The notes beneath the pieces were generated by a model. The model was not told the origin of the DNA. It saw nothing but the letters and a program-made list of their open reading frames with translations, and did not search any database. From NCBI RefSeq assembly GCF_003334305.1, contig NZ_QOWS01000033.1: a stretch of DNA of 35,452 nt. One strand, given 5' to 3'. Within the stretch, counting starts at the first letter, position 1. Every line of letters starts with the position of its first letter. This DNA is from Escherichia coli (lineage in GTDB: Bacteria > Pseudomonadota > Gammaproteobacteria > Enterobacterales > Enterobacteriaceae). Made by a program: the position numbers and the translations under genes. Shown here in pieces: positions 1 through 26,683 of the stretch.

Positions 1-2
1 TT

Positions 3-497
3 GGTTTAGGAGAAGGCTCTGCATTACCGGTTGGGGTGCCTGTTCCGTGGCCTTCAGCCACTCCGCCAACAGGCTGGCTGAAATGCAATGGTGCGGCTTT
101 TTCTGCTGAAGAATACCCGGAACTGGCAAAGGCTTACCCGACCAATAAATTGCCTGATTTACGTGGTGAGTTTATTCGTGGCTGGGATGATGAACGTGGT
201 GTGGATAGTGGGCGAACTCTGCTTTCATCGCAAGGAGATGCTATTCGAAACATTACTGGCGGTTTTGGTCAGTTGCGCGTAAACAGCGAAATTAATGCAA
301 TTGTCGATGTTCAAAGTGTGAGTGGGGCTTTTTACGGAGGTACCTCAGTCCGGAATAACATCAATGTGTCTATGACATACGCTAATGACCGAAAAATCCG
401 ACAAGATGTTCACTTCTCGGCGGCAAATGTTGTTCCAACAGCAAATGAAAATCGTCCACGTAACATCGCCTTTAATTATATTGTGAGGGCCGCATGA
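3..497 (+). CDS. Tail fibre protein, C-terminal variable part (5'-truncated by window edge; constant part lies upstream)
   Basis: Frame is open from position 3; the translation (GLGEGSALPVGVPVPW...GWLKCNGAAFSAEEYPEL...) resembles phage tail-fibre tips; the stop overlaps the start of the next gene (ATGA at 494-497). Confidence 0.65.
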   Translation, partial: GLGEGSALPVGVPVPWPSATPPTGWLKCNGAAFSAEEYPELAKAYPTNKLPDLRGEFIRGWDDERGVDSGRTLLSSQGDAIRNITGGFGQLRVNSEINAIVDVQSVSGAFYGGTSVRNNINVSMTYANDRKIRQDVHFSAANVVPTANENRPRNIAFNYIVRAA

Positions 498-1102
498 TGA
501 ATAAAGCTGTATTAAATAGCAAACTCATTGCCATAAAAGCGGGAGACATTATCATTTATAATTATGATGGTGAAACGCGGGAATATATTTCTACATCAAC
601 TGAATATCTCGCTGTCGGCGTCGGTATCCCGGCATGTTCTTGTTTAGATGCTCCGGGCTCAAACAAAGCTGGTTATGCAATTTGTCGTTCTGTAGATTTA
701 AACTCATGGGAATATGTGCCAGACCATCGCGGTGAAGTTGTCTATAGTACCGAAACGGGAGATACCAAAGAAATCACAGCTCCGGGTGATTACCCTGAAA
801 ATACAACCATTATCGCCCCATTAACGCCATACGATAAATGGGATGGTGAGAAATGGGTGACCGATACTGAGGCACAGCATAGCGCCGCAGTAGACGCGGC
901 AGAAGCACAGCGTCAGTCACTGATTGATGCTGCAATGGCTTCCATCAGTCTGATTCAGCTGAAATTACAGGCCGGACGGAAGTTGATGCAGGCAGAAACA
1001 ACCCGGCTTAACGCCGTGCTGGATTACATTGACGCGGTGACGGCAACAGATACCAGCACCGCGCCTGATATTATTTGGCCTGTATTCCCTGAGACTGATT
1101 AA
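494..1102 (+). CDS. Tail fibre assembly chaperone (Tfa / P2 G-like)
   Basis: 202-aa ORF immediately after the tail-fibre gene with start/stop overlap; position and size fit a tail fibre assembly protein. Confidence 0.65.
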   Translation: MMNKAVLNSKLIAIKAGDIIIYNYDGETREYISTSTEYLAVGVGIPACSCLDAPGSNKAGYAICRSVDLNSWEYVPDHRGEVVYSTETGDTKEITAPGDYPENTTIIAPLTPYDKWDGEKWVTDTEAQHSAAVDAAEAQRQSLIDAAMASISLIQLKLQAGRKLMQAETTRLNAVLDYIDAVTATDTSTAPDIIWPVFPETD

Positions 1103-1292
1103 CCTCAATTAGTATTGGTTCGCCTTTCTCATTAATTGTTAGCTCCATGCCCTGAGGAATTTCTGTCATAGTAAAAAACCAGTTGTCCTCCGGTAATTCA
1201 ATAGCCCCGGTCACGTCATGAAGACCGGGGATTACTTCAGTCAAAGTAACTGGATTAAACAGGCGCACAATAAACCCTCCAGGAAAAAGCAT
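1071..1292 (-). CDS. Alternative (inverted-orientation) short tail fibre assembly protein
   Basis: Minus-strand ORF convergent with the plus-strand assembly gene, downstream of the minus-strand fibre cassette; start placed at an internal Met; arrangement mirrors Mu G-segment / e14 cassettes. Confidence 0.35.
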   Translation of the reverse strand: MLFPGGFIVRLFNPVTLTEVIPGLHDVTGAIELPEDNWFFTMTEIPQGMELTINEKGEPILIEVNQSQGIQAK

Positions 1293-1596
1293 TTGATGAT
1301 GGTCTGCCGTCGTACATCTGGCAGCGGGCATAAAAGCCGGTATTTGTTACCTGATCATCCACGATCATTGAAACATGAACATTATTAGGTGTGCTCTCGT
1401 AATCCGTTCTTATTCTTTCCGCGATACTGATAAAACGTGAAAGTTTAGGCAGTGCAATTGGGTAAACAACTTTAGCCAGTCCATTATCATTAGATCCACC
1501 GGTTCCAAATACTTCTATTGCACCGTCTGACCAGCGTATCCATGCACCATTGGCATTAGCTCCTCGCTGAATGACATATCTGGCTTCTCCCAAACC
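1255..1596 (-). CDS. Alternative tail-fibre C-terminal cassette, promoterless, expressed only after inversion
   Basis: Minus-strand frame encodes ...VGLGEARYVIQRGANANGAWIRW...; the VGLGE junction matches the GLGE junction at the window start; the Met codons at 1638 lie outside the inverted repeat and are probably incidental. Confidence 0.5.
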   Translation of the reverse strand, partial: GLGEARYVIQRGANANGAWIRWSDGAIEVFGTGGSNDNGLAKVVYPIALPKLSRFISIAERIRTDYESTPNNVHVSMIVDDQVTNTGFYARCQMYDGRPSSNAFSWRVYCAPV

Positions 1597-1610
1597 AACG
1601 TTTAAGAAAA
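1585..1610. repeat. Invertase crossover site (hix/gix-like), right end of invertible segment; partner half-site at 1-14
   Basis: 1585-1598 TTCTCCCAAACCAA is the reverse complement of window positions 1-14 (TTGGTTTAGGAGAA) with one mismatch; 1585-1610 has the form TTCTCCCAAACC-AA-CGTTTAAGAAAA, resembling the 12-2-12 Hin/Gin crossover sites. Confidence 0.55.
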
Positions 1611-1659
1611 TGCAGAGGTAACAGCTAACTGGCATCATCTCCGGTTTTTATTCAGGGGG

Positions 1660-2232
1660 ATGATCATGCTTATTGGCTATGTACGCGTGTCAACAAATGA
1701 CCAGAACACCGATTTGCAACGTAATGCACTGAACTGCGCGGGATGTGAGCAGATTTTTGAGGACAAAATCAGTGGCACTAAGTCCGACAGACCGGGGCTG
1801 AAAAAACTACTCAGGACACTATCGGCAGGAGACACGCTGGTTGTCTGGAAGCTGGACAGGTTGGGGCGCAGTATGCGGCATCTTGTTACGCTGATAGAAG
1901 AGTTGCGCCAGCGTGGTGTGAATTTCAGAAGCCTGACTGACAGTATTGATACCAGTACCCCAATGGGTCGTTTCTTTTTTCATGTCATGGGTGCCCTGGC
2001 TGAAATGGAACGCGAACTGATAGTTGAACGTACCAGGGCAGGGCTGGCTGCAGCTCGTGCCAAAGGCAGAGTAGGTGGACGCCGTCCTAAGTTGACCACC
2101 GAACAGTGGGCACAGATTGGGCGTTTACTCGAGGCCGGAGAATCAAGACAGCGTATTGCACTGATTTTTGATGTAGGCGTTTCTACCATTTATAGAAAAT
2201 TTCCGGCAAATAAGATCAATGAATCCCCCTGA
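1660..2232 (+). CDS. Serine DNA invertase (Pin/Gin/Hin/Cin family)
   Basis: N-terminus IGYVRVSTNDQ with the catalytic Ser context, a resolvase-type catalytic domain and a C-terminal HTH (GVSTIYRKF); lies directly beside the right crossover site. Confidence 0.85.
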   Translation: MIMLIGYVRVSTNDQNTDLQRNALNCAGCEQIFEDKISGTKSDRPGLKKLLRTLSAGDTLVVWKLDRLGRSMRHLVTLIEELRQRGVNFRSLTDSIDTSTPMGRFFFHVMGALAEMERELIVERTRAGLAAARAKGRVGGRRPKLTTEQWAQIGRLLEAGESRQRIALIFDVGVSTIYRKFPANKINESP

Positions 2233-2374
2233 ATCAGCATTATGTTGATTATCCCTGCAAGCAGACAAATACCGTTATTTTGTGTGAATAACGACACAAC
2301 TGCGCTTAGCTGTTTGTCAGGCACAATCACTTCAACATAGGGCGAAGCCTAATCCAATCAGGAGGTTCGCCACT

Positions 2375-3547
2375 ATGGCTCAGGATTACCACCACGGGGT
2401 GCGCGTTGTTGAAGTCAACGAAGGCACCCGATCTATTACCACGGTGAGCACCGCCATCGTGGGTATGGTCTGCACGGGCGATGATGCCGATGCAAAAATG
2501 TTTCCTCTTAATAAACCCGTGCTGATCACTGATGTGCTGACTGCCAGCGGTAAAGCGGGTGAGTCAGGTACTCTGGCCCGTTCGCTGGATGCCATCGCTG
2601 ACCAGGCAAAACCCGTGACCATTGTTGTGCGTGTGCCGCAGGGTGAAACGGAAGACGAAACCACGACCAATATCATCGGCGCAGTGACTGCTGAAGGTAA
2701 AAAAACAGGTATGAAAGCCCTGTTATCTGCCCAGTCACAGCTCGGCGTTAAACCGCGCATTCTCGGCGTGCCAGGCCACGACACCAAGGCGGTAGCTACT
2801 GAGTTGCTGAGCGTGGCGCAAAGCCTGCGTGGATTTGCTTACCTGTCAGCGTATGGCTGCAAGACAGTGCAGGAGGCGATCACTTACCGCGAAAACTTCA
2901 GCCAGCGCGAAGGGATGCTGATCTGGCCTGACTTTACTGGCTGGGACACGGTGCTGAATGCCGAAGCAACGGCATATGCCACCGCCCGTGCGCTTGGTCT
3001 GCGCGCCAAAATTGACGAGCAGACCGGATGGCACAAAAGCCTGTCCAACGTGGGCGTGAACGGTGTCACCGGAATTTCTGCAGATGTGTTCTGGGATCTG
3101 CAGGACCCGGCAACCGATGCAGGTCTGCTGAACCAGAACGACGTCACCACGCTTGTGCGTAAAGACGGTTTCCGCTTCTGGGGTTCCCGCTGCCTGAGTG
3201 ATGACCCGCTCTTTGCCTTCGAAAACTACACCCGCACGGCGCAGGTGCTGATGGACACGATGGCAGAAGCACACATGTGGGCGGTGGATAAACCGCTTAA
3301 CCCGTCGCTGGCCCGCGACATTATCGAAGGTATCCGCGCCAAAATGCGCAGCCTGGTCAGTCAGGGCTATCTCATTGGTGGTGATTGCTGGCTGGATGAG
3401 TCGGTGAACGACAAAGACACGCTGAAAGCCGGAAAACTCACCATCGACTACGACTACACGCCAGTGCCGCCACTTGAAAACCTGATGCTGCGTCAGCGCA
3501 TCACCGATCAGTACCTGGTGAATTTCGCCAGCCAGGTCAGCGCGTAA
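2375..3547 (+). CDS. Contractile tail sheath protein (P2 FI-like)
   Basis: 390-aa ORF first in the conserved FI-FII-E-T-U-D order; size and position fit the sheath. Confidence 0.8.
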
Positions 3548-3556
3548 GGGGACAAC

Positions 3557-4072
3557 ATGGCATTACCACGCAAATTAAAACACCTGAACCTGTTTAACGA
3601 CGGGAACAACTGGCAGGGGATCGTTGAGTCGCTGACGCTGCCGAAATTTACCCGCAAATATGAGAAGTATCGCGGCGGCGGAATGCCGGGTGCGGTGGAT
3701 GTGGATCTGGGGCTTGATGACAGTGCGCTGGACACAGAATTTTCCATTGGTGGTACTGAATTGCTGCTGTTTAAACAGATGGGTAAAGCCACGGTGGATG
3801 GCATCCAGCTGCGCTTTACCGGCTCTATTCAGCGTGACGATACCGGGGAAGTGCAGGCCGTGGAGCTTGTCGTGCGTGGACGTCACAAAGAAGTGGATTC
3901 CGGCGAGTGGAAGACGGGCGAAAGCAACACCACCAAAGTGACCAGTACCAACAGCTACGCGAAGCTGACCATCAATGGTGAGGTGCTCTATGAAGTGGAC
4001 CTTATCAACATGGTGGAAATTGTGGACGGTGTGGACCTGATGGAAGCGCACCGCAACGCCCTCGGCCTCTGA
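3557..4072 (+). CDS. Tail tube protein (P2 FII-like)
   Basis: 171-aa ORF directly after the sheath gene. Confidence 0.8.
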   Translation: MALPRKLKHLNLFNDGNNWQGIVESLTLPKFTRKYEKYRGGGMPGAVDVDLGLDDSALDTEFSIGGTELLLFKQMGKATVDGIQLRFTGSIQRDDTGEVQAVELVVRGRHKEVDSGEWKTGESNTTKVTSTNSYAKLTINGEVLYEVDLINMVEIVDGVDLMEAHRNALGL

Positions 4073-4126
4073 TATATCTGAACGGCGCGGGATACCGCGC
4101 CAGAACCCAATTGACAGGACAGCAAA

Positions 4127-4429
4127 ATGAGCGATAAGCAGACTGAAAAGACCATTCAACTGGATACCCCCATCAAGCGCGGTAAAACAGAAATCACCGA
4201 AATTGTGCTGCGTAAACCGCAGTCCGGTGCGCTACGCGGTACACGCCTGCAGGCCATTATGGATATGGATGTAAACGCGATGATGACCGTGATCCCCCGC
4301 ATCTCCAGTCCGGCACTGACTGCACAGGAAATTGCAGAGATGGACCCGGCAGATCTCACTGCCATGTCGGTTGAGGTTGTCACTTTTTTGTTGAAGAAGT
4401 CGGTGCTTGCCGGTTTACCGACAGCCTGA
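4127..4429 (+). CDS. Tail assembly chaperone E
   Basis: 100-aa ORF between tube and tape measure; contains the slippery run TTTTTTG near its 3' end. Confidence 0.75.
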   Translation: MSDKQTEKTIQLDTPIKRGKTEITEIVLRKPQSGALRGTRLQAIMDMDVNAMMTVIPRISSPALTAQEIAEMDPADLTAMSVEVVTFLLKKSVLAGLPTA

Positions 4430-4563
4430 CGGTTGACGATCTGGTGGCAGATATCGCCACCATTTTTCACTGGCCGCCATCCGTTACTGACGTTATGCCG
4501 CTGACCGAAGTGCTGGAATGGCGGTATAAAGCGATTCAGAGAAGCGGGGCCAACGATGAGTGA
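4127..4563 (+). CDS. Tail assembly chaperone E+E' made by a programmed -1 frameshift at TTTTTTG (4384-4390)
   Basis: The -1 frame after the slippery site stays open to a TGA at 4561-4563, encoding ...ADIATIFHWPPSVTDVMPLTEVLEWRYKAIQRSGANDE and overlapping the tape-measure ATG at 4556. Confidence 0.6.
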
Positions 4564-7500
4564 TAACAACCTGCGTCTGCAGGTCATTCTTAATGCGGTT
4601 GACAAGCTCACCCGCCCATTTCGATCTGCGCAGGCCAGTTCAAGAGAACTGGCTGCTGCTGTCAAAAAATCCCGCGATGCAATAAAGCAGCTTGATCAGG
4701 CCGGGAGCAGTCTGGACAGCTTCCGAAAGCTGCAGGCAGAAAATCAGAAATTAGGCGACAGGCTGAACTATGCCCGCCAGCGTGCAAATTTGCTCAGTCA
4801 GGAACTGGGAGCGATGGGGCCGCCTTCGCAACGTCAGGTTGTTGCTCTGGGCCGTCAACGGCTGGCTGTTCAGCGCCTGGAAGAACGCCAGAAAAAGCTG
4901 CAGCAGCAGACGGCGCTTGTGCGTGCTGAACTGTACCGGGCGGGAATTTCTGCGAAAGACGATGCGGGAGCAACTGCCCGTTTAGCCCGTGAAACATCAC
5001 GTTATAACCAGGAACTTTCGAAACAGGAGGCGCGGCTGAAGCGACTGGGGGAAGCTCAGCGCAGGATGAATGCAGCGCGTGCCAGTTATGCCCGTTCGCT
5101 GGAGGTGCGTGATCGTATTGCAGGTGCCGGAGCCACCACCACGGCTGCAGGGCTGGCAATGGGTGCGCCAGTGATGGCGGCAGTAAAAAGCTATACCAGC
5201 ATGGAAGATGCCATGAAAGGTGTGGCAAAGCAGGTCAATGGTCTGCGTGACGATAATGGCAACCGCACTGCACGTTTTTATGAAATGCAGGATGCCATCA
5301 AGGCTGCCAGCGAACAGTTGCCGATGGAAAACGGTGCGGTGGACTTCGCTGCACTGGTTGAAGGTGGTGCGCGCATGAACGTCGCAAACCCTGACGACAG
5401 CTGGGAAGATCAGAAACGTGACCTGCTGGCCTTCGCCAGTACGGCAGCAAAGGCGGCAACAGCCTTTGAGCTGCCAGCGGATGAACTGTCAGAAAGTCTG
5501 GGGAAAATCGCCCAGCTCTACAAAATCCCCACCCGCAATATTGAACAGCTCGGTGATGCGCTGAACTATCTGGATGATAACGCCATGTCGAAAGGGGCAG
5601 ACATCATTGATGTGATGCAACGTCTGGGCGGTGTGGCTGACCGTCTGGATTATCGTAAAGCGGCGGCGCTGGGTTCCACCTTCCTGACACTGGGCGCTGC
5701 GCCGGAGGTTGCAGCCAGTGCAGCAAACGCGATGGTGCGTGAATTGTCCATTGCCACCATGCAAAGCAAGAGTTTCTTTGAAGGGATGAATCTGCTGAAA
5801 CTCAATCCTGAAGTGATTGAAAAGCAGATGACGAAGGATGCGATGGGAACCATCCAGCGCGTGCTGGAGAAGGTAAACGCGCTGCCGCAGGACAAGCGCC
5901 TGTCTGCCATGACTATGTTGTTTGGTAAAGAGTTTGGCGATGACGCGGCGAAACTGGCAAACAACCTGCCGGAACTGCAGCGTCAGTTAAAACTGACAGC
6001 GGGCAATGATGCGCTTGGCTCCATGCAGAAAGAATCCGACATTAACAAGGATTCACTTTCTGCGCAGTGGTTGCTGGTCAAAACCGGAGCGCAGAACACC
6101 TTCAGCAGCCTGGGCGAAACGCTGCGCCAGCCGCTGATGGATATTCTGTACACGGTGAAAAGCGTCACGGGGGCGTTGCGTCGCTGGGTGGAAGCTAACC
6201 CGGAACTGACAGGCACACTGATGAAAGCATCGGCTGTTGTGGCTGCGGTTACCGTCGGCCTCGGCACCTTAGCGGTGGCGCTGGCTGCAGTGCTGGGGCC
6301 GCTGGCAGTGATCCGTCTGGGATTCTCTGTGTTGGGTATCAAAACGTTATCTTCCGTTACGGCAGCAGTAACTCGAACCAGCAGCGCGTTGTCCTGGCTG
6401 GCTGGCGCACCACTGGCACTGCTGCGACGCGGGCTTGCTTCATCGGGCAACGCCGCAGGTTTACTTACTGCGCCGTTGTCGTCTTTGCGCCGCACGGCAT
6501 CACTGACGGGAAATGTCCTGAAAACTGTAGCAGGTGCGCCGGTTGCACTTTTGCGGTCTGGATTATCCGGTTTACGTGCGGTTGCTGTGATGTTTATGAA
6601 TCCACTGGCAGCACTACGCGGCGGGCTGGCTGCCGCAGGCACGGTGCTGCGAGTACTGGCATCTGGTCCACTGGCGATGTTGCGCGTTGCCCTGTATGCC
6701 GTATCTGGTCTGTTAGGTGCTCTGCTCAGTCCGATAGGTCTTGTGGTTACTGCACTGGCGGGTGTGGCACTGGTTGTCTGGAAATACTGGCAACCCATCA
6801 CCGCATTTCTCGGTGGCGTGGTGGAAGGATTCAAAGCGGCGGCAGGTCCCATCAGTGCAGCGTTCGAACCGCTTAAGCCTGTGTTCCAGTGGATTGGTGA
6901 CAAAGTGCAGGCGCTGTGGGGCTGGTTTACTGATCTGCTGACGCCCGTTAAGTCGACTTCTGCCGAACTGCAGAGCGCAGCGGCAATGGGGCGACGATTC
7001 GGGGAGGCACTGGCGGAAGGGCTGAATATGGTCATGCATCCGCTGGACTCCCTGAAATCCGGCGTTTCCTGGTTGCTGGAGAAGCTCGGCATTATCAGTA
7101 AAGAGGCCGCAAAGGCAAAACTGCCGGAAAGCGTGACGCGTCAGCAACCTGCGACGGTGAATGCAGACGGTAAAGTGATGATGCCATCGGGTGGTTTTCC
7201 GTCATGGGGATATGGCTTTGCGGGGATGTATGACAGCGGCGGCTATATCCCGCGCGGGCAGTTTGGCATCGTCGGTGAAAACGGGCCGGAAATTGTTAAC
7301 GGCCCGGCAAATGTGACCAGCCGGAGAAATACAGCTGCACTGGCTGCCGTTGTTGCCGGAATGATGGGCGTTGCTGCCGCGCCTGCAGAGCTTCCACCGT
7401 TGCACCCTTTGGCACTTCCCGCGAAAGGCGGCGAAGCGATGGTGAGTCGTGCAGCCACTGTGCCGCCCGTTCAACGGATTGAGGCACCGATGCAGATCAT

Positions 7501-7633
7501 CATTCAGACGCAGCCAGGACAAAGTGCGCAGGATATTGCGCGGGAGGTGGCCCGCCAGCTTGATGAACGTGAACGCAGGCTGAAGGCAAAAGCCAGGAGT
7601 AACTACAGCGATCAGGGGGGATACGACGCATGA
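4556..7633 (+). CDS. Tail tape measure protein (P2 T-like)
   Basis: 1025-aa ORF with a coiled-coil-like N-terminal region, central hydrophobic Ala/Leu/Gly repeats and the canonical position after E/E'. Confidence 0.85.
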   Translation: MSDNNLRLQVILNAVDKLTRPFRSAQASSRELAAAVKKSRDAIKQLDQAGSSLDSFRKLQAENQKLGDRLNYARQRANLLSQELGAMGPPSQRQVVALGRQRLAVQRLEERQKKLQQQTALVRAELYRAGISAKDDAGATARLARETSRYNQELSKQEARLKRLGEAQRRMNAARASYARSLEVRDRIAGAGATTTAAGLAMGAPVMAAVKSYTSMEDAMKGVAKQVNGLRDDNGNRTARFYEMQDAIKAASEQLPMENGAVDFAALVEGGARMNVANPDDSWEDQKRDLLAFASTAAKAATAFELPADELSESLGKIAQLYKIPTRNIEQLGDALNYLDDNAMSKGADIIDVMQRLGGVADRLDYRKAAALGSTFLTLGAAPEVAASAANAMVRELSIATMQSKSFFEGMNLLKLNPEVIEKQMTKDAMGTIQRVLEKVNALPQDKRLSAMTMLFGKEFGDDAAKLANNLPELQRQLKLTAGNDALGSMQKESDINKDSLSAQWLLVKTGAQNTFSSLGETLRQPLMDILYTVKSVTGALRRWVEANPELTGTLMKASAVVAAVTVGLGTLAVALAAVLGPLAVIRLGFSVLGIKTLSSVTAAVTRTSSALSWLAGAPLALLRRGLASSGNAAGLLTAPLSSLRRTASLTGNVLKTVAGAPVALLRSGLSGLRAVAVMFMNPLAALRGGLAAAGTVLRVLASGPLAMLRVALYAVSGLLGALLSPIGLVVTALAGVALVVWKYWQPITAFLGGVVEGFKAAAGPISAAFEPLKPVFQWIGDKVQALWGWFTDLLTPVKSTSAELQSAAAMGRRFGEALAEGLNMVMHPLDSLKSGVSWLLEKLGIISKEAAKAKLPESVTRQQPATVNADGKVMMPSGGFPSWGYGFAGMYDSGGYIPRGQFGIVGENGPEIVNGPANVTSRRNTAALAAVVAGMMGVAAAPAELPPLHPLALPAKGGEAMVSRAATVPPVQRIEAPMQIIIQTQPGQSAQDIAREVARQLDERERRLKAKARSNYSDQGGYDA

Positions 7634-8115
7634 TGATGGTGCTGGGATTGTACGTGTTTATGCTGCGCACCGTGCCGTATCAGGAGCTGCAGTATCAACG
7701 CAGCTGGCGACATGCGGCAAACAGCCGGGTAAACCGACGTCCGTCCACGCAGTTTCTGGGACCGGACAACGACATGCTGACGCTTTCCGGTGTTCTTATG
7801 CCGGAGATAACAGGTGGCAGGCTGTCGTTGCTGGCACTGGAGCAGATGGCAGAACAGGGGAAAGCATGGCCCCTGATTGAAGGCAGCGGCACGATTTATG
7901 GCATGTATGTGATTGAGGGACTGAATCAGACTAAAACGGAGTTTTTCCGCGACGGTATGCCGCGCCGGATTGAGTTCACCCTGTCGCTCAAACGGGTGGA
8001 TGAATCCCTGTCCGATATGTTCGGTGATCTCAGTGCGCAACTGAATAATCTGCAGGAAACGGCAACGTCTGCCTTAAGCGATATCAGTAAAACGGTGGGA
8101 GGGCTGCTGTCGTGA
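7630..8115 (+). CDS. Tail protein U-like
   Basis: 161-aa ORF whose start overlaps the tape-measure stop; position matches P2 gene U. Confidence 0.75.
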   Translation: MMMVLGLYVFMLRTVPYQELQYQRSWRHAANSRVNRRPSTQFLGPDNDMLTLSGVLMPEITGGRLSLLALEQMAEQGKAWPLIEGSGTIYGMYVIEGLNQTKTEFFRDGMPRRIEFTLSLKRVDESLSDMFGDLSAQLNNLQETATSALSDISKTVGGLLS

Positions 8116-9212
8116 ATTTCAGCTCTGAACTGCTTAACAAAAGCAACAAAACTCCGGCATTCAGCATCAGTATTGAGGGCAGGGATATCACTACTGTGCT
8201 GGATAACCGCCTGATGAGTCTGACTCTGACGGACAATCGGGGCTTTGAAGCAGACCAGCTTGATCTGGAGCTGGACGATGCCGACGGGAAAATCGTGCTG
8301 CCGCGCCGTGGTGCGGTCATTACGCTGGCGCTGGGCTGGAAGGGGCAGCCGCTTTTCCCGAAAGGGGCATTCACGGTGGACGAGATTGAACACACTGGCG
8401 CACCGGACCGCCTGACTATCCGGGCGCGAAGTGCTGATTTTCGGGAAACGCTGAATACCCGCCGTGAAAAATCGTGGCACAAGACCACCATTGGGGAAGT
8501 GGTGAAGGAGATAGCCGCGCGGCACAAGCTGAAGATGGTACTGGGTAAAGACCTGTCGGATAAGCTCGTGGAGCATATAGACCAGACTAATGAGAGTGAC
8601 GGTAGTTTTCTGATGCGGCTGGCGCGCCAGTACGGTGCTATTGCGTCGGTGAAAAATGGCAATCTGTTATTCATCCGGCAGGGACAGGGCAAAAGTGCCA
8701 GCGGTAAACCACTGCCGGTGATCACTATCACACGTAAGGACGGCGACAGTCACCGCTTTACCCTGGCAGATCGCGGAGCCTATACGGGCATAATTGCCAG
8801 CTGGTTGCATACCCGCGAACCCGCGAAGAAAGAAAGCACCACGGTGAAGCGTAAGCGCAGGACTAAGAAGCAGAAGAAAGAGCCGGAAGCGAAGCAGGGC
8901 GATTACCTGGTGGGTACGGATGAAAACGTGCTGGTACTTAATCGCACTTATGCCAACCGGAGCAACGCTGAACGGGCAGCGAAAATGCAGTGGGAACGCC
9001 TGCAACGCGGCGTTGCGTCATTCTCGCTACAACTGGCGGAAGGGCGGGCAGATCTCTACACGGAAATGCCAGTGAAAGTCAGTGGCTTTAAACAGCCGAT
9101 AGATGATGCGGAATGGACCATTACGACTCTGACACATACCGTCAGCCCGGATAATGGTTTTACGACCAGTCTTGAGCTTGAAGTGAAGGTTGATGATCTC
9201 GAAATGGAATGA
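8112..9212 (+). CDS. Tail protein D-like (late tail gene)
   Basis: 366-aa ORF with a GTG start overlapping the U stop; position matches P2 gene D. Confidence 0.75.
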   Translation: MNFSSELLNKSNKTPAFSISIEGRDITTVLDNRLMSLTLTDNRGFEADQLDLELDDADGKIVLPRRGAVITLALGWKGQPLFPKGAFTVDEIEHTGAPDRLTIRARSADFRETLNTRREKSWHKTTIGEVVKEIAARHKLKMVLGKDLSDKLVEHIDQTNESDGSFLMRLARQYGAIASVKNGNLLFIRQGQGKSASGKPLPVITITRKDGDSHRFTLADRGAYTGIIASWLHTREPAKKESTTVKRKRRTKKQKKEPEAKQGDYLVGTDENVLVLNRTYANRSNAERAAKMQWERLQRGVASFSLQLAEGRADLYTEMPVKVSGFKQPIDDAEWTITTLTHTVSPDNGFTTSLELEVKVDDLEME

Positions 9213-9302
9213 TTCTTCACAATGGAGAACTTTTAAGTTTGAAAAATGGAATAATGCGATATCATTATTGTGAATTTAGCAAAAATGGGGAGAACTCGAA
9301 AA

Positions 9303-9521
9303 ATGATGATTTGCCCACTGTGTGGAAGTGCCGCCCATACTCGCAGCAGTTTTCAGGTATCTTCATTGACCAAAGAGCGTTACAACCAGTGCCAGAACAT
9401 TAACTGCAGCCATACTTTTGTTACCCATGAAACTTTTGTTCGTTCGATTGCAACGCCAAAAGAGTCAAATCCGGTTCAGCCGCATCCTCATAAATTTAAA
9501 CAGGTGGGTTTGCCGATTTAA
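9303..9521 (+). CDS. ogr: Ogr/Delta-type zinc-finger late transcription activator
   Basis: CPLCGSAAHTRSS...YNQCQNINCSHTF is a C4 zinc-finger pattern like P2 Ogr; start placed at the Met preceding CPLC, with a GGGAGA Shine-Dalgarno upstream. Confidence 0.75.
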   Translation: MMICPLCGSAAHTRSSFQVSSLTKERYNQCQNINCSHTFVTHETFVRSIATPKESNPVQPHPHKFKQVGLPI

Positions 9522-9585
9522 ATGGCGACATAACTACATGATTTAAAACTATACTTTTCTATAAGTTGAGGTTAAATTAACAATG

Positions 9586-9762
9586 CCTGACGTTAGCGGG
9601 GATTTATCCCCACTCCGTAGATATGTAGTTTGTCGCTTTGCGACTGCGGACCGATTACCTGATTGCCATGTAATCGGACGCCGACTTGTTAAGCTTTCTG
9701 GGCTAACTGGTTGTTATTTTTTATTTAGTTAGGGCCATGCGCTTGCGCTAAGAGACGTCAGG
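9586..9762 (+). ncRNA. Candidate structured non-coding RNA upstream of the reverse transcriptase (retron msr/msd-like or DRT-type ncRNA)
   Basis: Long-range inverted repeat CCTGACGTTAGCG (9586-9598) with CGCTA-AGAG-ACGTCAGG (9746-9762) enclosing hairpins at 9598-9611, 9632-9644 and 9651-9677; no convincing ORF inside. Confidence 0.4.
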
Positions 9763-9782
9763 TATCTATGGAGGAACAAGTT

Positions 9783-9956
9783 ATGGATACAAACGAACTT
9801 GGCTTAGTTAAGGCGCGTGTTGAACTGATCACCGCTATGCTCAAATGCGCAACCGCGTTTGTTGGCTTAGTTGGTGCGGTTTACGCCGTTCTTAACATGG
9901 CCTTCAACTACAACAATTTAACTCATGACAATAGAAGTTCAAAGGTGGGAAGATAA
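9783..9956 (+). CDS. Small hypothetical protein with one hydrophobic helix (possible small effector, or frameshifted RT N-terminus)
   Basis: Only open frame across 9768-9956; GGAGGA Shine-Dalgarno about 7 nt before the ATG at 9783; hydrophobic stretch AFVGLVGAVYAVLNMAF; overlaps the RT start by about 30 nt in another frame. Confidence 0.3.
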   Translation: MDTNELGLVKARVELITAMLKCATAFVGLVGAVYAVLNMAFNYNNLTHDNRSSKVGR

Positions 9957-10698
9957 ATTTGAGATTAAGCCCGGGGTTTGGGTTTATGTCCCAAGCGTTG
10001 AGGCACGTAAAGTCGGAGGGAAGATACTTCAGGCTGTCAGAAACAAGTGGATTCCGCCACTCTATTTTTACCATCTAAGAACTGGTGGGCATCTTAAAGC
10101 TGCCAGATTACACTTAAAAAGTGATTTTTTTGCCGTTGTTGATATTAAACAATTTTTTCAGTCAACGAGCCGTAGTCGTATCACCCGTGATCTAAAGAGC
10201 TACTTCACCTATTCTCAAGCGCGGGAAATCTCAACATTTTCAACTGTAAGAAACTTGTCCCATAGTCCACATAAGCATGTCCTCCCTTTTGGTTTTGTTC
10301 AATCTCCAATACTTGCAACCCTCTGCTTAGATAAAAGTTATTTTGGTAGCTTACTACGCCGATTGAACAAACATCATGATCTCAAGCTAAGTGTGTTTAT
10401 GGATGATGTGATCATCTCGTCAAACGATTTGGCCCAATTACAAGCGGCTTACGACGAAGCACTAGTGGCAATGCGTAAATCTGGTTATCAAGCCAACATG
10501 AGTAAAACTCAGGCACCATCGTCAAAGATTAGCGTGTTTAATTTAACTTTGAGTAAGGGAGTTATGAAAGTCACATCTCAGAAAATGAGTGACTTCCTGA
10601 TTGATTTCTATTCAAGCAATTATGAGCCGCACAGAATAGGGGTCAAAAACTACGTCGAAGCTGTTAATCCAGGGCAAGCGAAACTCTTTAAGTTGTAA
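9925..10698 (+). CDS. Compact reverse transcriptase (retron/Abi/DRT-like RT domain)
   Basis: RT motifs readable in the translation: fingers FEIKPGVWVYVPS, motif A VVDIKQFFQS, motif B LPFGFVQSPILATLCL, catalytic YxDD box FMDD; AT-rich with rare codons (AGA, ATA, CTA). Confidence 0.75.
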   Translation: MTIEVQRWEDKFEIKPGVWVYVPSVEARKVGGKILQAVRNKWIPPLYFYHLRTGGHLKAARLHLKSDFFAVVDIKQFFQSTSRSRITRDLKSYFTYSQAREISTFSTVRNLSHSPHKHVLPFGFVQSPILATLCLDKSYFGSLLRRLNKHHDLKLSVFMDDVIISSNDLAQLQAAYDEALVAMRKSGYQANMSKTQAPSSKISVFNLTLSKGVMKVTSQKMSDFLIDFYSSNYEPHRIGVKNYVEAVNPGQAKLFKL

Positions 10699-10806
10699 TT
10701 GCGATCGCATGTAGTAGCAACTGGGCTTGACTGAATGTCTGCCGCCATTTTGCCGCCACTACTAAAGAAAAAAGGGCTACGCTTTCACGTAACCCCTTGA
10801 TTTATT

Positions 10807-11169
10807 TGGTGGAGCTGGCGGGAGTTGAACCCGCGTCCGAAATTCCTACATCCTCGGTACTACATGCTTAGTCAGTCTTTACATTCGCTTGCCAGCTGCG
10901 GACGGACACGCCACTAACAAACTAGCCTGATTAAGTTTTAACGCTTCAACCCCAGGCAGGGCTTCCACGCGATCTCTTTTGGGTTTGACCTCTCTTGATC
11001 CCCGTCCTAAGAGCGGAGGCTAGGGAGAGAGGGCTCTAAGCAGGTTATTAAGCTGCTAAAGCGTAGTTTTCGTCGTTTGCGACTATTTTTTGCGGCTTTT
11101 TACGAGGCCAACCGCCCCTCGGCATGCACCTTGGGTTTCGCAAATCCCGTCGAATCCAGAATCAGCCCC
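10807..11169 (-). ncRNA. ssrA: tmRNA (SsrA)
   Basis: Reverse complement matches E. coli tmRNA from GGGGCTGATTCTGG (5' end at 11169) to GCTCCACCA (3' end at 10807), including the tag-coding region. Confidence 0.95.
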
Positions 11170-11383
11170 AATGTGTAAAGGTAAGTATACCAGATTTATG
11201 AGCGCCATGACCAGCCTCAATGGCGTTATCGTTAAAGATTTAGCACCCATGTAGCCTGATTTTTATTCGATTAAGCAATGGGATGGCAACATTTGTGTCG
11301 GATGTGATAGCCAATAAGATGTTCATTCGCGCCGCCGGAGAGGGAGGCGCGGTGAGGAACTGGTCAATAATTGGAGTGCAGGT

Positions 11384-23153: not shown

Positions 23154-24380
23154 TTATCTCACCAGCTTTTCGGCACGCTGGTGTTTGGCCTGATACATAT
23201 TGTGATCGGCAAGCTCTTGTAATTTTTCCGCAGAGGCGTGCTCAATGGTCATCGCGTAACCAATGCTTAATGTCATGGTGGTCTGATGGCCATTATGAAG
23301 ATCAAACGGGAGATTAAAGATTTGTGTCAGTGCTGAGCATATCTGCTGCACTTCAGATTCTGACTGTACATCATAGAGCACCATAGCGAATTCATCGCCG
23401 CCCAGGCGGTATGCTTTATGTCGCAGCCCGCCAAATTCAGCTAACCGTTTTGCGATTTCAATCAAGACCCTATCGCCCGTCGCATGACCCCAGGTATCAT
23501 TGATGTATTTGAAATTATCGCCATCAAGAAATAGTAACGCCGACGTTTTTCGGGCATCGGAATTGTTCATCAACGTGTTGATGCCGCTACGAAACGCTGC
23601 GCGGTTAGCCAGCCCGGTTAATGGGTCATGTAGCGCGGTACGTAGAAGCTGCGCATTTTTAGCCTGTAAACGAAGCTGCCACTCTTCCATTTCATCCAGC
23701 AGACTGTTGAAGTCGAGAGCGAAGCGGTGAAACTCAGCGATACGTTCTTCCGAAACTCGTCGGGAAAAATTGCGGTTGGAACGCACATCATGTACGACAT
23801 CGGTGATATTTTTCAGTGCTTCCACCAGGCCATTGTGCAAATGGCGGGTGAGGGTAATTGCGATTCCTGATGCCAGCAGAATACAACCGGTCAGTACGGC
23901 GAGCGAAAACCAGATAAAATGGCTGATTGAACTGTCGCGAGCGGTTAAGCGTACTTCGCCAATGGTTTCGCCATTGTGACGAATCGGCTGAATGATGGGG
24001 GCAGGGAAGAGCCAGTGGCTTATGAAATTGCTGAAAGTATCGCCTGGATCCTTACGGGTGTAATGCCAGGATGCCAGAATATTTTGCTGCTTATCACGTA
24101 CTTCTGCAGTTGAAAATTGCCCTTGCTGGCCCAGCGCTGCCAGTGTTTCAGTTGCTGCAGGGCCATCGGCAAAAACGACAGCTGCTTCCAGACTGTAAGT
24201 CATTGTTGCTGCTGTCAGTGCCAGGTTTTTTTGCGCGTACTGTTTCAGGGTCAGCACCGAGGTCACGGAAAGCAGCAACCAGATCAGCATCATAGTGATA
24301 AATATGCTGGTCATACTGATGTTGCGTAATGCTCTTTTAAACGTGGGGCGCTTATTAAGAGAATTATCGTTATCCATCAT
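23154..24380 (-). CDS. dgcN: Diguanylate cyclase DgcN (YfiN), GGDEF domain
   Basis: N-terminal transmembrane/HAMP region and a C-terminal GGDEF-type domain (RLGGDEF). Confidence 0.85.
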
Positions 24381-24888
24381 TTTTCTTCCGTGCGAGCATT
24401 AAGACATCCGGGTTGACCTTTACACCGCTACGCGATAAGGCATCCAGGTTTACGGCAAATCTGACGTCATTATTGTGGATGATCAGACAAAAGGCGCTAC
24501 CAATAATGCACTCGGTATTTTGTTCGGCAATTAATAATAACGCCTTTGACGGATATTGTTCGGTTAATTCCATCTGGAATGTCGGTGACTCGTTGCCAAA
24601 ATAAAAACCATTGCAGCCTGAAATCATCGCCTCTTGTTGAGTGTGAATGATGACAGGCAGATAAGGCAAAGATGTCGCGGCATTCTCTTGTAGGGCGGTA
24701 CTAAAACGTGAAGATGAAAAGATACATAACTTTGGTGGCCCTGATAGCGCAGGCCAGCGGGTGTAACTGACAATACCGGAAACCATCATACGCACGTTTT
24801 TCGCAACGTCAGAAGGCTCCTGAGCGAGTATTGGTGCTCCCGTCAGCAGGAGAATCAGAAGTAAGAACAGTCGGTGAGAAAAACGCAT
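24370..24888 (-). CDS. yfiR: Periplasmic repressor of DgcN, YfiR
   Basis: 172 aa with a signal peptide; overlaps the start of yfiN. Confidence 0.8.
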
Positions 24889-25037
24889 TCAGGGATCCCC
24901 ACCATCTTCGCTCGAAATGCATCGATATTTTTTCAGAATGCTCATTAAAATATCATTTTTTCATGCGATCGTCATCAATGTGAGAAATAAAACACAATGA
25001 GTAAAATCTTATGTTTAATTTATTTGTGGGGTTTTAA

Positions 25038-25403
25038 TTAATTTAATCGTATTGTGCTGGCATTTTCATCAGCCCCTTTTTGCCATACTTCATGCAGTTG
25101 GCTGGCATTTTCAACATTGTTGCAGCTGGCAGGAAAGCTTTTACCGGAAAGTCCCCGGGCATAAGTAAAATCGGTCTGGCAAGTTTTCTTTTGTCCTTCG
25201 GCATATCCTTTAAGGTATAGACCGCGATCCGCCTGTGAATCGCTAAATGCATCGTCATCTTTTATGGCGCTGCCCGATATCGCATCTTCCATACCAACAT
25301 CATACCAGTCGGTGCTGGTCAAGGTTGGCGCGTGAGTATAAGGATCAATCTGACATCCGCTAACCAGTAAAGCCAACAAGGGGGCGATAAACTTTTTCAT
25401 CAT
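25038..25403 (-). CDS. yfiL: Lipoprotein YfiL
   Basis: Signal peptide with lipobox (LVSGC); start placed at the MMKKF Met. Confidence 0.65.
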   Translation of the reverse strand: MMKKFIAPLLALLVSGCQIDPYTHAPTLTSTDWYDVGMEDAISGSAIKDDDAFSDSQADRGLYLKGYAEGQKKTCQTDFTYARGLSGKSFPASCNNVENASQLHEVWQKGADENASTIRLN

Positions 25404-25448
25404 TTCTTTCTCCTTTTTCAAAGCATAGCGGATTGTTTTCAAAGGGAG

Positions 25449-25518
25449 TGTAAACTTATCTATACAGAAGTAAGGGTTGAAATCGCGACTAAATTGCCTG
25501 TGTAAATAAAAATGTACG
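25449..25518. promoter_or_regulatory. TyrR boxes in the aroF promoter region
   Basis: TGTAAA-N6-TATACA at 25449-25466 and TGTAAA-N6-TGTACG at 25501-25518 fit the TGTAAA-N6-TTTACA TyrR consensus, upstream of aroF. Confidence 0.45.
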
Positions 25519-25612
25519 AAATATGGATTGAAAACTTTACTTTATGTGTTATCGTTACGTCATCCTCGCTGAGGATCAACTATCGCAAACGAGCATAAAC
25601 AGGATCGCCATC

Positions 25613-26683
25613 ATGCAAAAAGACGCGCTGAATAACGTACATATTACCGACGAACAGGTTTTAATGACTCCGGAACAACTGAAGGCCGCTTTTCCATTGA
25701 GCCTGCAACAAGAAGCCCAGATTGCTGACTCGCGTAGAACCATTTCAGATATTATCGCCGGGCGCGATCCTCGTCTGCTGGTAGTATGTGGTCCTTGTTC
25801 CATTCATGATCCGGAAACTGCTCTGGAATATGCTCGTCGATTTAAAGCCCTTGCCGCAGAGGTCAGCGATAGCCTCTATCTGGTAATGCGCGTCTATTTT
25901 GAAAAACCCCGTACCACTGTCGGCTGGAAAGGGTTAATTAACGATCCCCATATGGATGGCTCTTTTGATGTAGAAGCCGGGCTGCAGATCGCGCGTAAAT
26001 TGCTGCTTGAGCTGGTGAATATGGGACTGCCACTGGCGACGGAAGCGTTAGATCCGAATAGCCCGCAATACCTGGGCGATCTGTTTAGCTGGTCAGCAAT
26101 TGGTGCTCGTACAACGGAATCGCAAACTCACCGTGAAATGGCCTCCGGGCTTTCCATGCCGGTTGGTTTTAAAAACGGCACCGACGGCAGTCTGGCAACA
26201 GCAATTAACGCTATGCGCGCCGCCGCCCAGCCGCACCGTTTTGTTGGCATTAACCAGGCAGGGCAGGTTGCGTTGCTACAAACTCAGGGGAATCCGGACG
26301 GGCATGTCATCCTGCGCGGTGGTAAAGCGCCGAACTATAGCCCTGCGGATGTTGCGCAATGTGAAAAAGAGATGGAACAGGCGGGACTGCGCCCGTCTCT
26401 GATGGTAGATTGCAGCCACGGTAATTCCAATAAAGATTATCGCCGTCAGCCTGCGGTGGCAGAATCCGTGGTTGCTCAAATCAAAGATGGCAATCGCTCA
26501 ATTATTGGTCTGATGATCGAAAGTAATATCCACGAGGGCAATCAGTCTTCCGAGCAACCGCGCAGTGAAATGAAATACGGTGTATCCGTAACCGATGCCT
26601 GCATTAGCTGGGAAATGACCGATGCCTTGCTGCGTGAAATTCATCAGGATCTGAACGGGCAGCTGACGGCTCGCGTGGCTTAA
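25613..26683 (+). CDS. aroF: Tyr-sensitive DAHP synthase AroF
   Basis: 356-aa translation from [11 protein letters not shown]...; followed by tyrA. Confidence 0.95.

Follow-up and report, generated by a model that had tools for sequence, protein, structure and literature searches.

We analysed a 35,452-nucleotide stretch of Escherichia coli DNA (contig NZ_QOWS01000033.1; hereafter the window), focusing on a small cassette at the end of a prophage integrated at ssrA, the gene for transfer-messenger RNA (tmRNA). The cassette consists of a predicted structured RNA, a small open reading frame (ORF) and a gene for a short reverse transcriptase (RT). The window is E. coli chromosomal DNA, and the region concerned is 100% identical to that of strain C2. 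Positions 1-10806 represent the right end of a P2-like prophage, comprising tail fibre and tail genes, gene D, ogr, the small ORF and the RT gene. Gene D (8112-9212, plus strand; an ORF annotated in RefSeq in the identical C2 region), a late control/tail gene with a GC content of 0.542 and a GC content at third codon positions (GC3) of 0.616, is the end gene of a GC-rich morphogenetic block. It is followed by ogr (9303-9521, plus strand), which encodes a zinc-finger activator of late genes (NCBIfam PRK09678, 90 bits; PHROG 603). The gap between ogr and the small ORF contains a 246-nt intergenic stretch, and the structured RNA is predicted at 9581-9766 on the plus strand. The small ORF (9783-9956, plus strand; annotated as WP_000380485.1 and conserved in relatives) encodes a hydrophobic protein of 57 residues, here designated SP for small protein, and the RT gene (9925-10698, plus strand; Pfam RVT_1, 2.4e-21) encodes a short retron-type enzyme of 257 residues. 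A conserved arm of the phage proximal to the attachment site (att) occupies 10734-10806 and leads to ssrA (10807-11169, minus strand; found by ARAGORN and with an Rfam tmRNA score of 295.8 bits), the target of integration. Downstream of ssrA are smpB, ratA and further core host genes. A previous inspection of the letters of this DNA (the sequence-only reading) had labelled the RT correctly; the RNA gene and the small ORF had gone unnoticed.

The sequence-only reading had described the DNA from about 9210 to 10700 as AT-richer than the tail genes, and this proved accurate. The GC content of 9210-10806 was 0.416, compared with 0.559 in the tail genes (2375-9212) and 0.50 in the host part of the window (11170-35452). 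This was essentially the lowest-GC 1.6-kb interval of the window, as 0.27% of sliding windows were equally low and all of these overlapped 9210-10806. Maximum-likelihood change points in GC content were located at 9151 on the left (0.569 to 0.415, log-likelihood gain of 51.5), about 60 nt before the stop codon of gene D, and at 10701 on the right (0.412 to 0.49), 3 nt past the stop codon of the RT gene. Between them, ogr, the intergenic RNA region, SP and RT all had GC contents of 0.41-0.44, with the RT gene displaying the lowest value (0.406) and the most atypical codon use of the region. Codon statistics were computed on the ORFs of the window. The codons AGA, ATA, CTA and TTA, which had been said to abound in the RT gene, indeed made up 20 of its 257 codons (7.8%; AGA 5, ATA 4, CTA 5, TTA 6), against 27 of 2213 (1.2%) in the tail genes (Fisher p = 8e-9) and 26 of 1359 (1.9%) in six host genes (p = 6e-6). 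GC3 was 0.389 in the RT gene, 0.61 in the tail genes and 0.53 in the host genes. An index modelled on the codon adaptation index, with the local host genes as reference, was 0.54 for both RT and SP and 0.65-0.76 for all other genes. Both sliding-window GC content and codon adaptation therefore differ clearly from those of the flanking genes. On the other hand, ogr (GC content 0.443) lies inside the low-GC block and yet contains none of the four rare codons, and its index (0.75) is like that of the host. GC content falls about as low (0.42-0.44) at 24250-25750 too, in an interval that is not an island: it holds the core genes yfiR and dgcN/yfiN together with a gene for a lipoprotein. As a separate observation, the region of tail fibre assembly and DNA invertase genes at 1-2300 is also AT-richer than the tail genes (GC content 0.42-0.49); with a recombinase gene at 1660-2232 and tail fibre assembly genes in opposite orientations, it looks like an invertible host-range module.

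The limits of the variable DNA became apparent from comparison with related prophages. The segment 8703-9487, corresponding to the end of gene D and ogr, is shared at 97-99% identity with Klebsiella phage 4LV2017 and more than 1,700 E. coli genomes, none of which carries the cassette. The homology with 4LV2017 stops at 9487, and in this phage just 73 nt separate ogr from attR, meaning that the slot is empty. The final 34 nt of ogr (9488-9521, about 11 C-terminal residues) differ from the ogr of cassette-less phages, to which the rest of the gene is 99% identical; the exchange of cargo therefore seems to have involved recombination within the 3' end of ogr. In E. coli 573, a P2-like prophage at ssrA has another allele of ogr and, encoded on the opposite strand, an unrelated ORF of 160 residues; it is again homologous to the window from 10734 onward, and the arm up to 10806 is shared at 99.3%. 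As ogr and the last 73 nt are retained in relatives, both can be assigned to the phage backbone, leaving a slot from the ogr stop codon to the att-proximal arm (9522-10733) that ends 73 nt short of the 45-bp att core in ssrA. The functional unit within the cargo is 9581-10698. We are highly confident that the cargo is limited to approximately 9522-10733 and that it has the anatomy of a retron-like element.

These limits bear on the claim that the whole ogr-to-ssrA segment is an island acquired separately. The sequence-only reading had taken 9210-10806, ogr included, as one acquisition, and this is compatible with the GC content common to ogr, the intergenic RNA region, SP and RT and with a left change point (9151) that precedes ogr. 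However, ogr is maintained at 97-99% identity in the genomes and the phage that have no cassette, its codon use is that of the host, and other ogr alleles are equally AT-rich beside different cargo (0.46 in relatives, compared with 0.54-0.55 for gene D). Moreover, the homologous segment of Klebsiella michiganensis spans 9585-10698 only. We regard a single acquisition of the entire block as already contradicted by these results and very improbable. What remains of the claim is that a cargo cassette adjoins the attachment site. Likewise, the compositional break does fall near the stop codon of gene D, at the end of the morphogenetic block as had been noted, but it is not the boundary of the cargo. 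The AT-rich block is in fact two-layered: one layer is the backbone DNA of ogr and the att arm, which is AT-rich throughout the relatives, and the other is a cargo of 1.2 kb.

The distribution of the cassette was surveyed in 5,426 complete E. coli genomes. The attR junction of a prophage at ssrA was present in 237-307 of them. In the comparison of P2-like prophages at this site that the sequence-only reading had suggested, some carry the cassette and others do not: it was intact in 21 genomes (28 when interrupted copies are counted), and the unrelated 160-residue ORF lay next to ssrA in 171. This ORF is the commonest alternative cargo between ogr and attR; it encodes a hypothetical protein on the opposite strand with a GC content of 0.42 (2324-2806 of the E. 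coli 573 stretch), occurs in 706 genomes overall, and its sole database match is a weak one to PADLOC PDC-S48 (3.6e-7). In strain NMBU-W12E19, the IS4-family insertion sequence IS421 has inserted into the RNA gene within its first hairpin, where 9599-9610 flanks the element on either side, and this copy is a natural knock-out allele of the cassette. Outside E. coli, 13 Klebsiella prophage records contain the cassette at 99.4% identity, and Salmonella Typhi CT18 displays 98.6% identity over 9489-11216, which includes the cassette and the adjacent ssrA, its RT being STY2879. In K. michiganensis, homology (81%) is confined to 9585-10698, beginning near the 5' end of the RNA (a1, see below) and ending at the RT stop codon; ogr again precedes this copy, although the P2-like prophage is another one, integrated at a site other than ssrA. 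Gene D is likewise followed by distant members of the family in Salinicola and Halomonas. The majority of family members are located elsewhere, as in Klebsiella pneumoniae, where one lies beside umuDC. By these homology limits, the retron-like unit is mobile as a block. The K. pneumoniae homologue next to umuDC is very common, 45% identical, and annotated as a single protein of 302 residues. This annotation is explained by SP and RT being in the same frame with no intervening stop codon, and the protein is either an SP-RT fusion or the result of a mis-called start. A practical point concerns STY2879, which has been used as a 'Typhi-specific' diagnostic target for loop-mediated isothermal amplification (LAMP) (PMC4409374, PMC12942956). 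With near-identical copies in E. coli (98.6%) and Klebsiella (99.4%), cross-reaction is conceivable, and the presence of the cassette in these organisms bears on the specificity of the assay. A literature search with the RT and SP accessions returned nothing but these Typhi LAMP papers.

Could the break simply reflect an intrinsic AT-richness of regulatory and att-arm DNA in the phage, with no foreign origin involved? The AT-richness of ogr and the att arm is shared by all relatives, and the core host genes at 24250-25750 are just as AT-rich. In addition, at 34 of 35 loci the homologous retron-like units have a lower GC content than the DNA flanking them (mean difference -8.4 points). The hosts are unrelated and the GC content of the flanks varies between 38% and 71%, a pattern suggestive of an intrinsic bias. 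Low GC content thus characterises the element family itself and is not the mark of a single donor. Nevertheless, prophages that are otherwise collinear differ in having, lacking or replacing the 1.2-kb block, which is also found in other genomic contexts and has an outlying codon index. Both features of prophage cargo ('moron') DNA were therefore found, namely presence, absence or replacement at one position, and composition and codon use that deviate from the backbone. We consider a purely intrinsic origin of the break to be quite unlikely. The proposal of cargo of different origin beside att stands, with presence and absence among relatives as stronger proof than composition; what does not hold is that the low GC content is simply the signature of one donor.

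The attR core corresponds to the 3'-terminal 45 nt of ssrA (10807-10851, minus strand). An identical 45-bp copy is present at the other end of the prophage in E. coli C2 (5996-6040 of the attL-side stretch), where it adjoins the native ssrA terminator and a CP4-57-type integrase gene. Genomes with no prophage match the window only from about 10802-10807 onward. A terminator scan identified a hairpin followed by a T-run in the phage arm (10798-10771, minus strand), which is predicted to serve as a replacement ssrA terminator supplied by the phage. The arm also contains a motif at 10739-10758 (GCCGCCATTTTGCCGCCA / TGCCGCCATTTTGCCGCCAC) that recurs right after ogr in 4LV2017 and near attL in C2, and is possibly an arm-type binding site of the integrase; a site here would explain why cargo inserts to the left of the motif. 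Outside the window, on the attL side of C2, copies of the GCCGCCA-type arm motif are present at 6128-6153 and 7410-7435, and two hypothetical genes (6154-8529; 397 and 375 residues) lie between the attL core and the integrase gene. The two proteins had no match in PADLOC. This interval may represent a second cargo slot at the other end of the prophage.

We now turn to the components of the cassette. The RT harbours the catalytic motif F158-M159-D160-D161. Among structures in the PDB, its top 13 matches were all retron RTs, the best being Ec86 (4e-13, residues 60-297). The best PADLOC model was RT_VI (63 bits, model positions 49-242 of 279), and the models RT_VI, I-B, IX and II-A scored close together at 48-63 bits. 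The family comprises 282 clusters at 50% identity (E <= 1e-30), with members all of about 250-260 residues, and is spread over the Gamma-, Beta-, Zeta- and Alphaproteobacteria. We considered whether the enzyme might be of a non-retron kind, either an Abi-P2/DRT-type defence RT that functions with no templating RNA or the remnant of a group II intron. The enzyme is unusually short, and Abi-P2-type RTs are known in P2-like phages at another hotspot (Odegrip 2006, cited in PMC9122126 and PMC3091744). However, scores with defence RT models were far lower than those with retron models (UG33, 33 bits; Drt3a, 17.6 bits against a cut-off of 200), and an Abi-P2/DRT assignment was rejected. A group II intron was rejected as well, as the maturase model TIGR04416 gave 23 bits against a cut-off of 300 and Rfam recognized no intron RNA in 9100-11300 at E <= 1. 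Together with the adjacent RNA, whose covarying closing helix and invariant A-G described below are a retron hallmark, these results make a non-retron RT extremely unlikely.

The region upstream of SP can be folded into a structured RNA (z = -3.4) bounded by an inverted repeat, with the 5' arm a1 at 9583-9594 pairing with the 3' arm a2 at 9754-9765 (both plus strand). The repeat was recovered in 30 loci, its arms being 125-190 nt apart. Compensatory changes affected six of the seven a1/a2 pairs across 30-46 loci, as counted on a plain MAFFT alignment and in agreement with pair counts on an alignment made with a covariance model. The aligned a1/a2 cells were paired in 97.9-98.8% of cases (97.9% on the MAFFT alignment), compared with 23-43% in slid controls, and the observed covariation was reached in 0 of 500 shuffles. 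The covariance model gave a single match in the window, at 9581-9766 (60.6 bits, E = 1e-11), and matched 45 loci of the RT family, 16 of them outside the training set, always on the strand of the RT gene and just upstream of SP-RT. The elements follow in a conserved order. Directly 3' of a1 is A9595-G9596, a dinucleotide that is invariant across the 30 aligned sequences, and G9596 is the candidate for the branching/priming guanosine by analogy with known retrons. Then come a first hairpin, a hairpin of the form GUCAC-nnn-GUGAU, a long hairpin of variable sequence, the motif GUUGGUU, a further hairpin (CAUGCGC-loop-GCGCUAGG) and a2, with GGAGG, the ribosome-binding site of SP, directly after a2. 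The hairpin before a2, in the region 9744-9753, can also be written as CAUGCGC-loop-GCGCUA(A/G)G. The minimum free energy fold of a 469-nt stretch covering the RNA and SP contained long-range structure unlike that of the 269-nt fold, and because of this disagreement we relied on covariation. As judged from its conserved sequence and pairing, the RNA has the anatomy of a retron msr-msd. A repeat of 20 nt with 70% complementarity (9602-9621 and 9939-9958) joins the first hairpin to the region of the SP stop and RT start codons. As a basis for pairing within a hybrid RNA it is probably a chance occurrence, since the equivalent pairing is not conserved in 28 other loci.

The SP protein carries an invariant N42-Y43 pair in the sequence LNMAFNY, and its stop codon overlaps the start of the RT gene by 32 nt. 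An equivalent ORF of 40-65 residues with the N-Y motif at its end, overlapping the RT start, was found in nearly all of about 60 loci from Gamma- to Alphaproteobacteria. In these proteins the N-terminus is basic, a hydrophobic helix spans about 30 residues, and the Asn-Tyr pair is invariant. SP had no match in PADLOC, NCBIfam or PHROGs. Since SP directly overlaps the RT start, there is no room for another ORF between them. No helix-turn-helix (HTH) gene was present between or beside SP and RT in any of the approximately 60 loci, and no conserved HTH was found among neighbouring genes with Pfam calls. By analogy with the small proteins of known retrons, we infer that SP is a toxic effector. A correspondence in spacing between I39/F43/F45 of the Vpa2 SP and L37/F41/Y43 of the protein studied here was not used as evidence, as the register of K15 does not fit the Vibrio members of the family.

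Among described systems, the cassette most resembles the type VI retrons (Vpa2, Eco12 and Sen3; clade 3 of Mestre 2020). These have the layout RNA-SP-HTH-RT and defend against phage, with SP as the toxin (10.1101/2025.10.22.683967, 10.64898/2026.04.27.721009). In both cases an RNA closed by an inverted repeat is followed by a small hydrophobic protein and a short RT, the ribosome-binding site of SP abuts the RNA structure, and the small ORF is situated between RNA and RT. RT_VI is the best PADLOC model for the cassette enzyme. There are also differences. The score of the cassette enzyme with RT_VI is weak (63 bits). The HTH of type VI retrons, a Cro/C1-type protein of 91-110 residues encoded upstream of or overlapping the RT gene, has no counterpart in the cassette. 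SP has 40-65 residues and the N-Y motif in the family described here, as opposed to 75-79 residues in the named SP clusters. The inverted repeat of known type VI retrons encloses the SP coding region, whereas the a1/a2 helix of the cassette closes before it and does not wrap it. Retron-Eco12 (Zhang 2025) may be the same element as the cassette; the type VI operon in that paper is described with an HTH gene. In Mestre 2020, about 22% of the type VI entries have no HTH, and the RT family may be among these.

Retron-Eco1 (Ec86) provides a second comparison, with the closest RT among solved structures and an RNA that is likewise upstream of the RT gene. The branch context in Ec86 is UUAGC, and its a1/a2 helix is directly followed by A-G, as in the cassette RNA. 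The cassette RT is shorter than that of Ec86 by about 50-60 N-terminal residues. The cassette also differs from canonical retrons in having a tiny hydrophobic effector, as we predict it to be, between RNA and RT. In terms of location, it resembles the anti-phage cargo hotspots of P2-like phages and P4-like satellites (Rousset et al. 2022, PMC9122126; Odegrip 2006), which are variable slots with AT-rich cargo that differs by isolate and includes retrons. The described P2 hotspot is the Z/fun-tin locus, whereas the slot found here is terminal in the prophage, with ogr on one side and the att arm on the other; ogr is not mentioned in PMC9122126. A retron-class RT is also an accessory gene in the Burkholderia P2-like phage KS5 (gp44/gp45, PMC3091744), but there the RT has 339 residues, is accompanied by a 107-residue regulator in a pair resembling the HTH-RT pair of type VI, and is located next to the portal gene.

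Taking these results together, we propose that the cargo is a self-contained retron-like anti-phage module, made up of an RNA, SP and a short RT, that occupies the slot between ogr and att. We assign this overall interpretation a probability of roughly 70%. DNA synthesis, the toxicity of SP, the trigger and the anti-phage function are all parts that we infer by analogy. The cassette would be transcribed rightward, possibly together with ogr. The RT would bind the RNA in its folded form, closed at the ends by the a1/a2 helix, prime on the 2'-OH of the invariant G9596 just after a1, and copy the RNA from the conserved GCGC hairpin beside a2 into a small single-stranded DNA. The 57-residue hydrophobic N-Y protein would be the toxic effector. 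As there is no HTH antitoxin gene, either the RT-RNA/DNA complex or the structure of the RNA at the ribosome-binding site after a2 would have to silence SP. An infecting phage may then disturb the RNA/DNA complex and release SP, aborting the infection and thereby protecting the lysogen population and with it the prophage. For an abortive-infection mechanism of this kind we see slightly better than even odds.

The same components could also be used in a role other than defence, for instance as an addiction module that stabilizes the prophage, or as a weapon or regulator of the lytic cycle. A toxic SP with the RNA and RT as antidote would act as an addiction module. The cassette is right downstream of the late activator ogr, and with no terminator or promoter predicted between them, expression together with the late genes is possible. 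Nevertheless, all experimentally tested retrons of such a layout act in defence, and the same unit is found outside prophages, as beside umuDC in K. pneumoniae. A non-defence role consequently seems unlikely to us.

Several results weigh against the interpretation of the cargo as a retron-like defence module. The Rfam scan of 9100-11300 at E <= 1 returned the tmRNA only and no retron RNA family, and the promoter scan gave no sigma-70-like promoter between ogr and a1. Duplex energies between the msr and the 3' region of SP were no different from those of shuffled sequences in 28 loci, which revealed no conserved pairing that would enclose SP. The RT falls below all curated cut-offs, with 49.5 bits for NCBIfam retron_St85_RT against a cut-off of 235, and its 63-bit match to RT_VI covers part of the model. 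The HTH is required for viability in Retron-Sen3, and the Cro/C1 HTH gene is missing from the cassette family in about 60 loci. Finally, as the core genes around yfiR and dgcN are equally AT-rich, low GC content alone is weak evidence for acquisition.

AT-rich cargo beside att and retrons within P2/P4-type elements are already known, and the compositional break itself is textbook behaviour of prophage cargo. On the other hand, the papers and databases consulted contained no description of the ogr-att cargo slot, the SP-RT-RNA family, or STY2879 as a retron-like RT. We tentatively raise the possibility, to which we give somewhat less than an even chance, that the family is a widespread and uncharacterised retron lineage (some 280 clusters at 50% identity, ranging from Gamma- to Alphaproteobacteria) that differs from the 13 retron types described so far. 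Its members would consist of an msr-msd RNA of about 150-190 nt, an N-Y protein of 40-65 residues and an RT of about 255 residues. With no HTH, gating of a tiny membrane-active toxin would fall to the RT-RNA/DNA complex alone, and P2-like phages of E. coli, Klebsiella and Salmonella Typhi would carry the lineage in their ogr-att slot.

If confirmed, the junction between ogr and att would join Z/fun-tin as a second cargo slot in P2-like phages, and offer a further place to mine for defence genes. The cassette would be a very compact relative of retrons, with a total length of about 1.1 kb and no HTH gene. It would allow a test of whether the translational or post-translational model of type VI control works with no antitoxin, and would be a possible small scaffold for retron-based DNA production.

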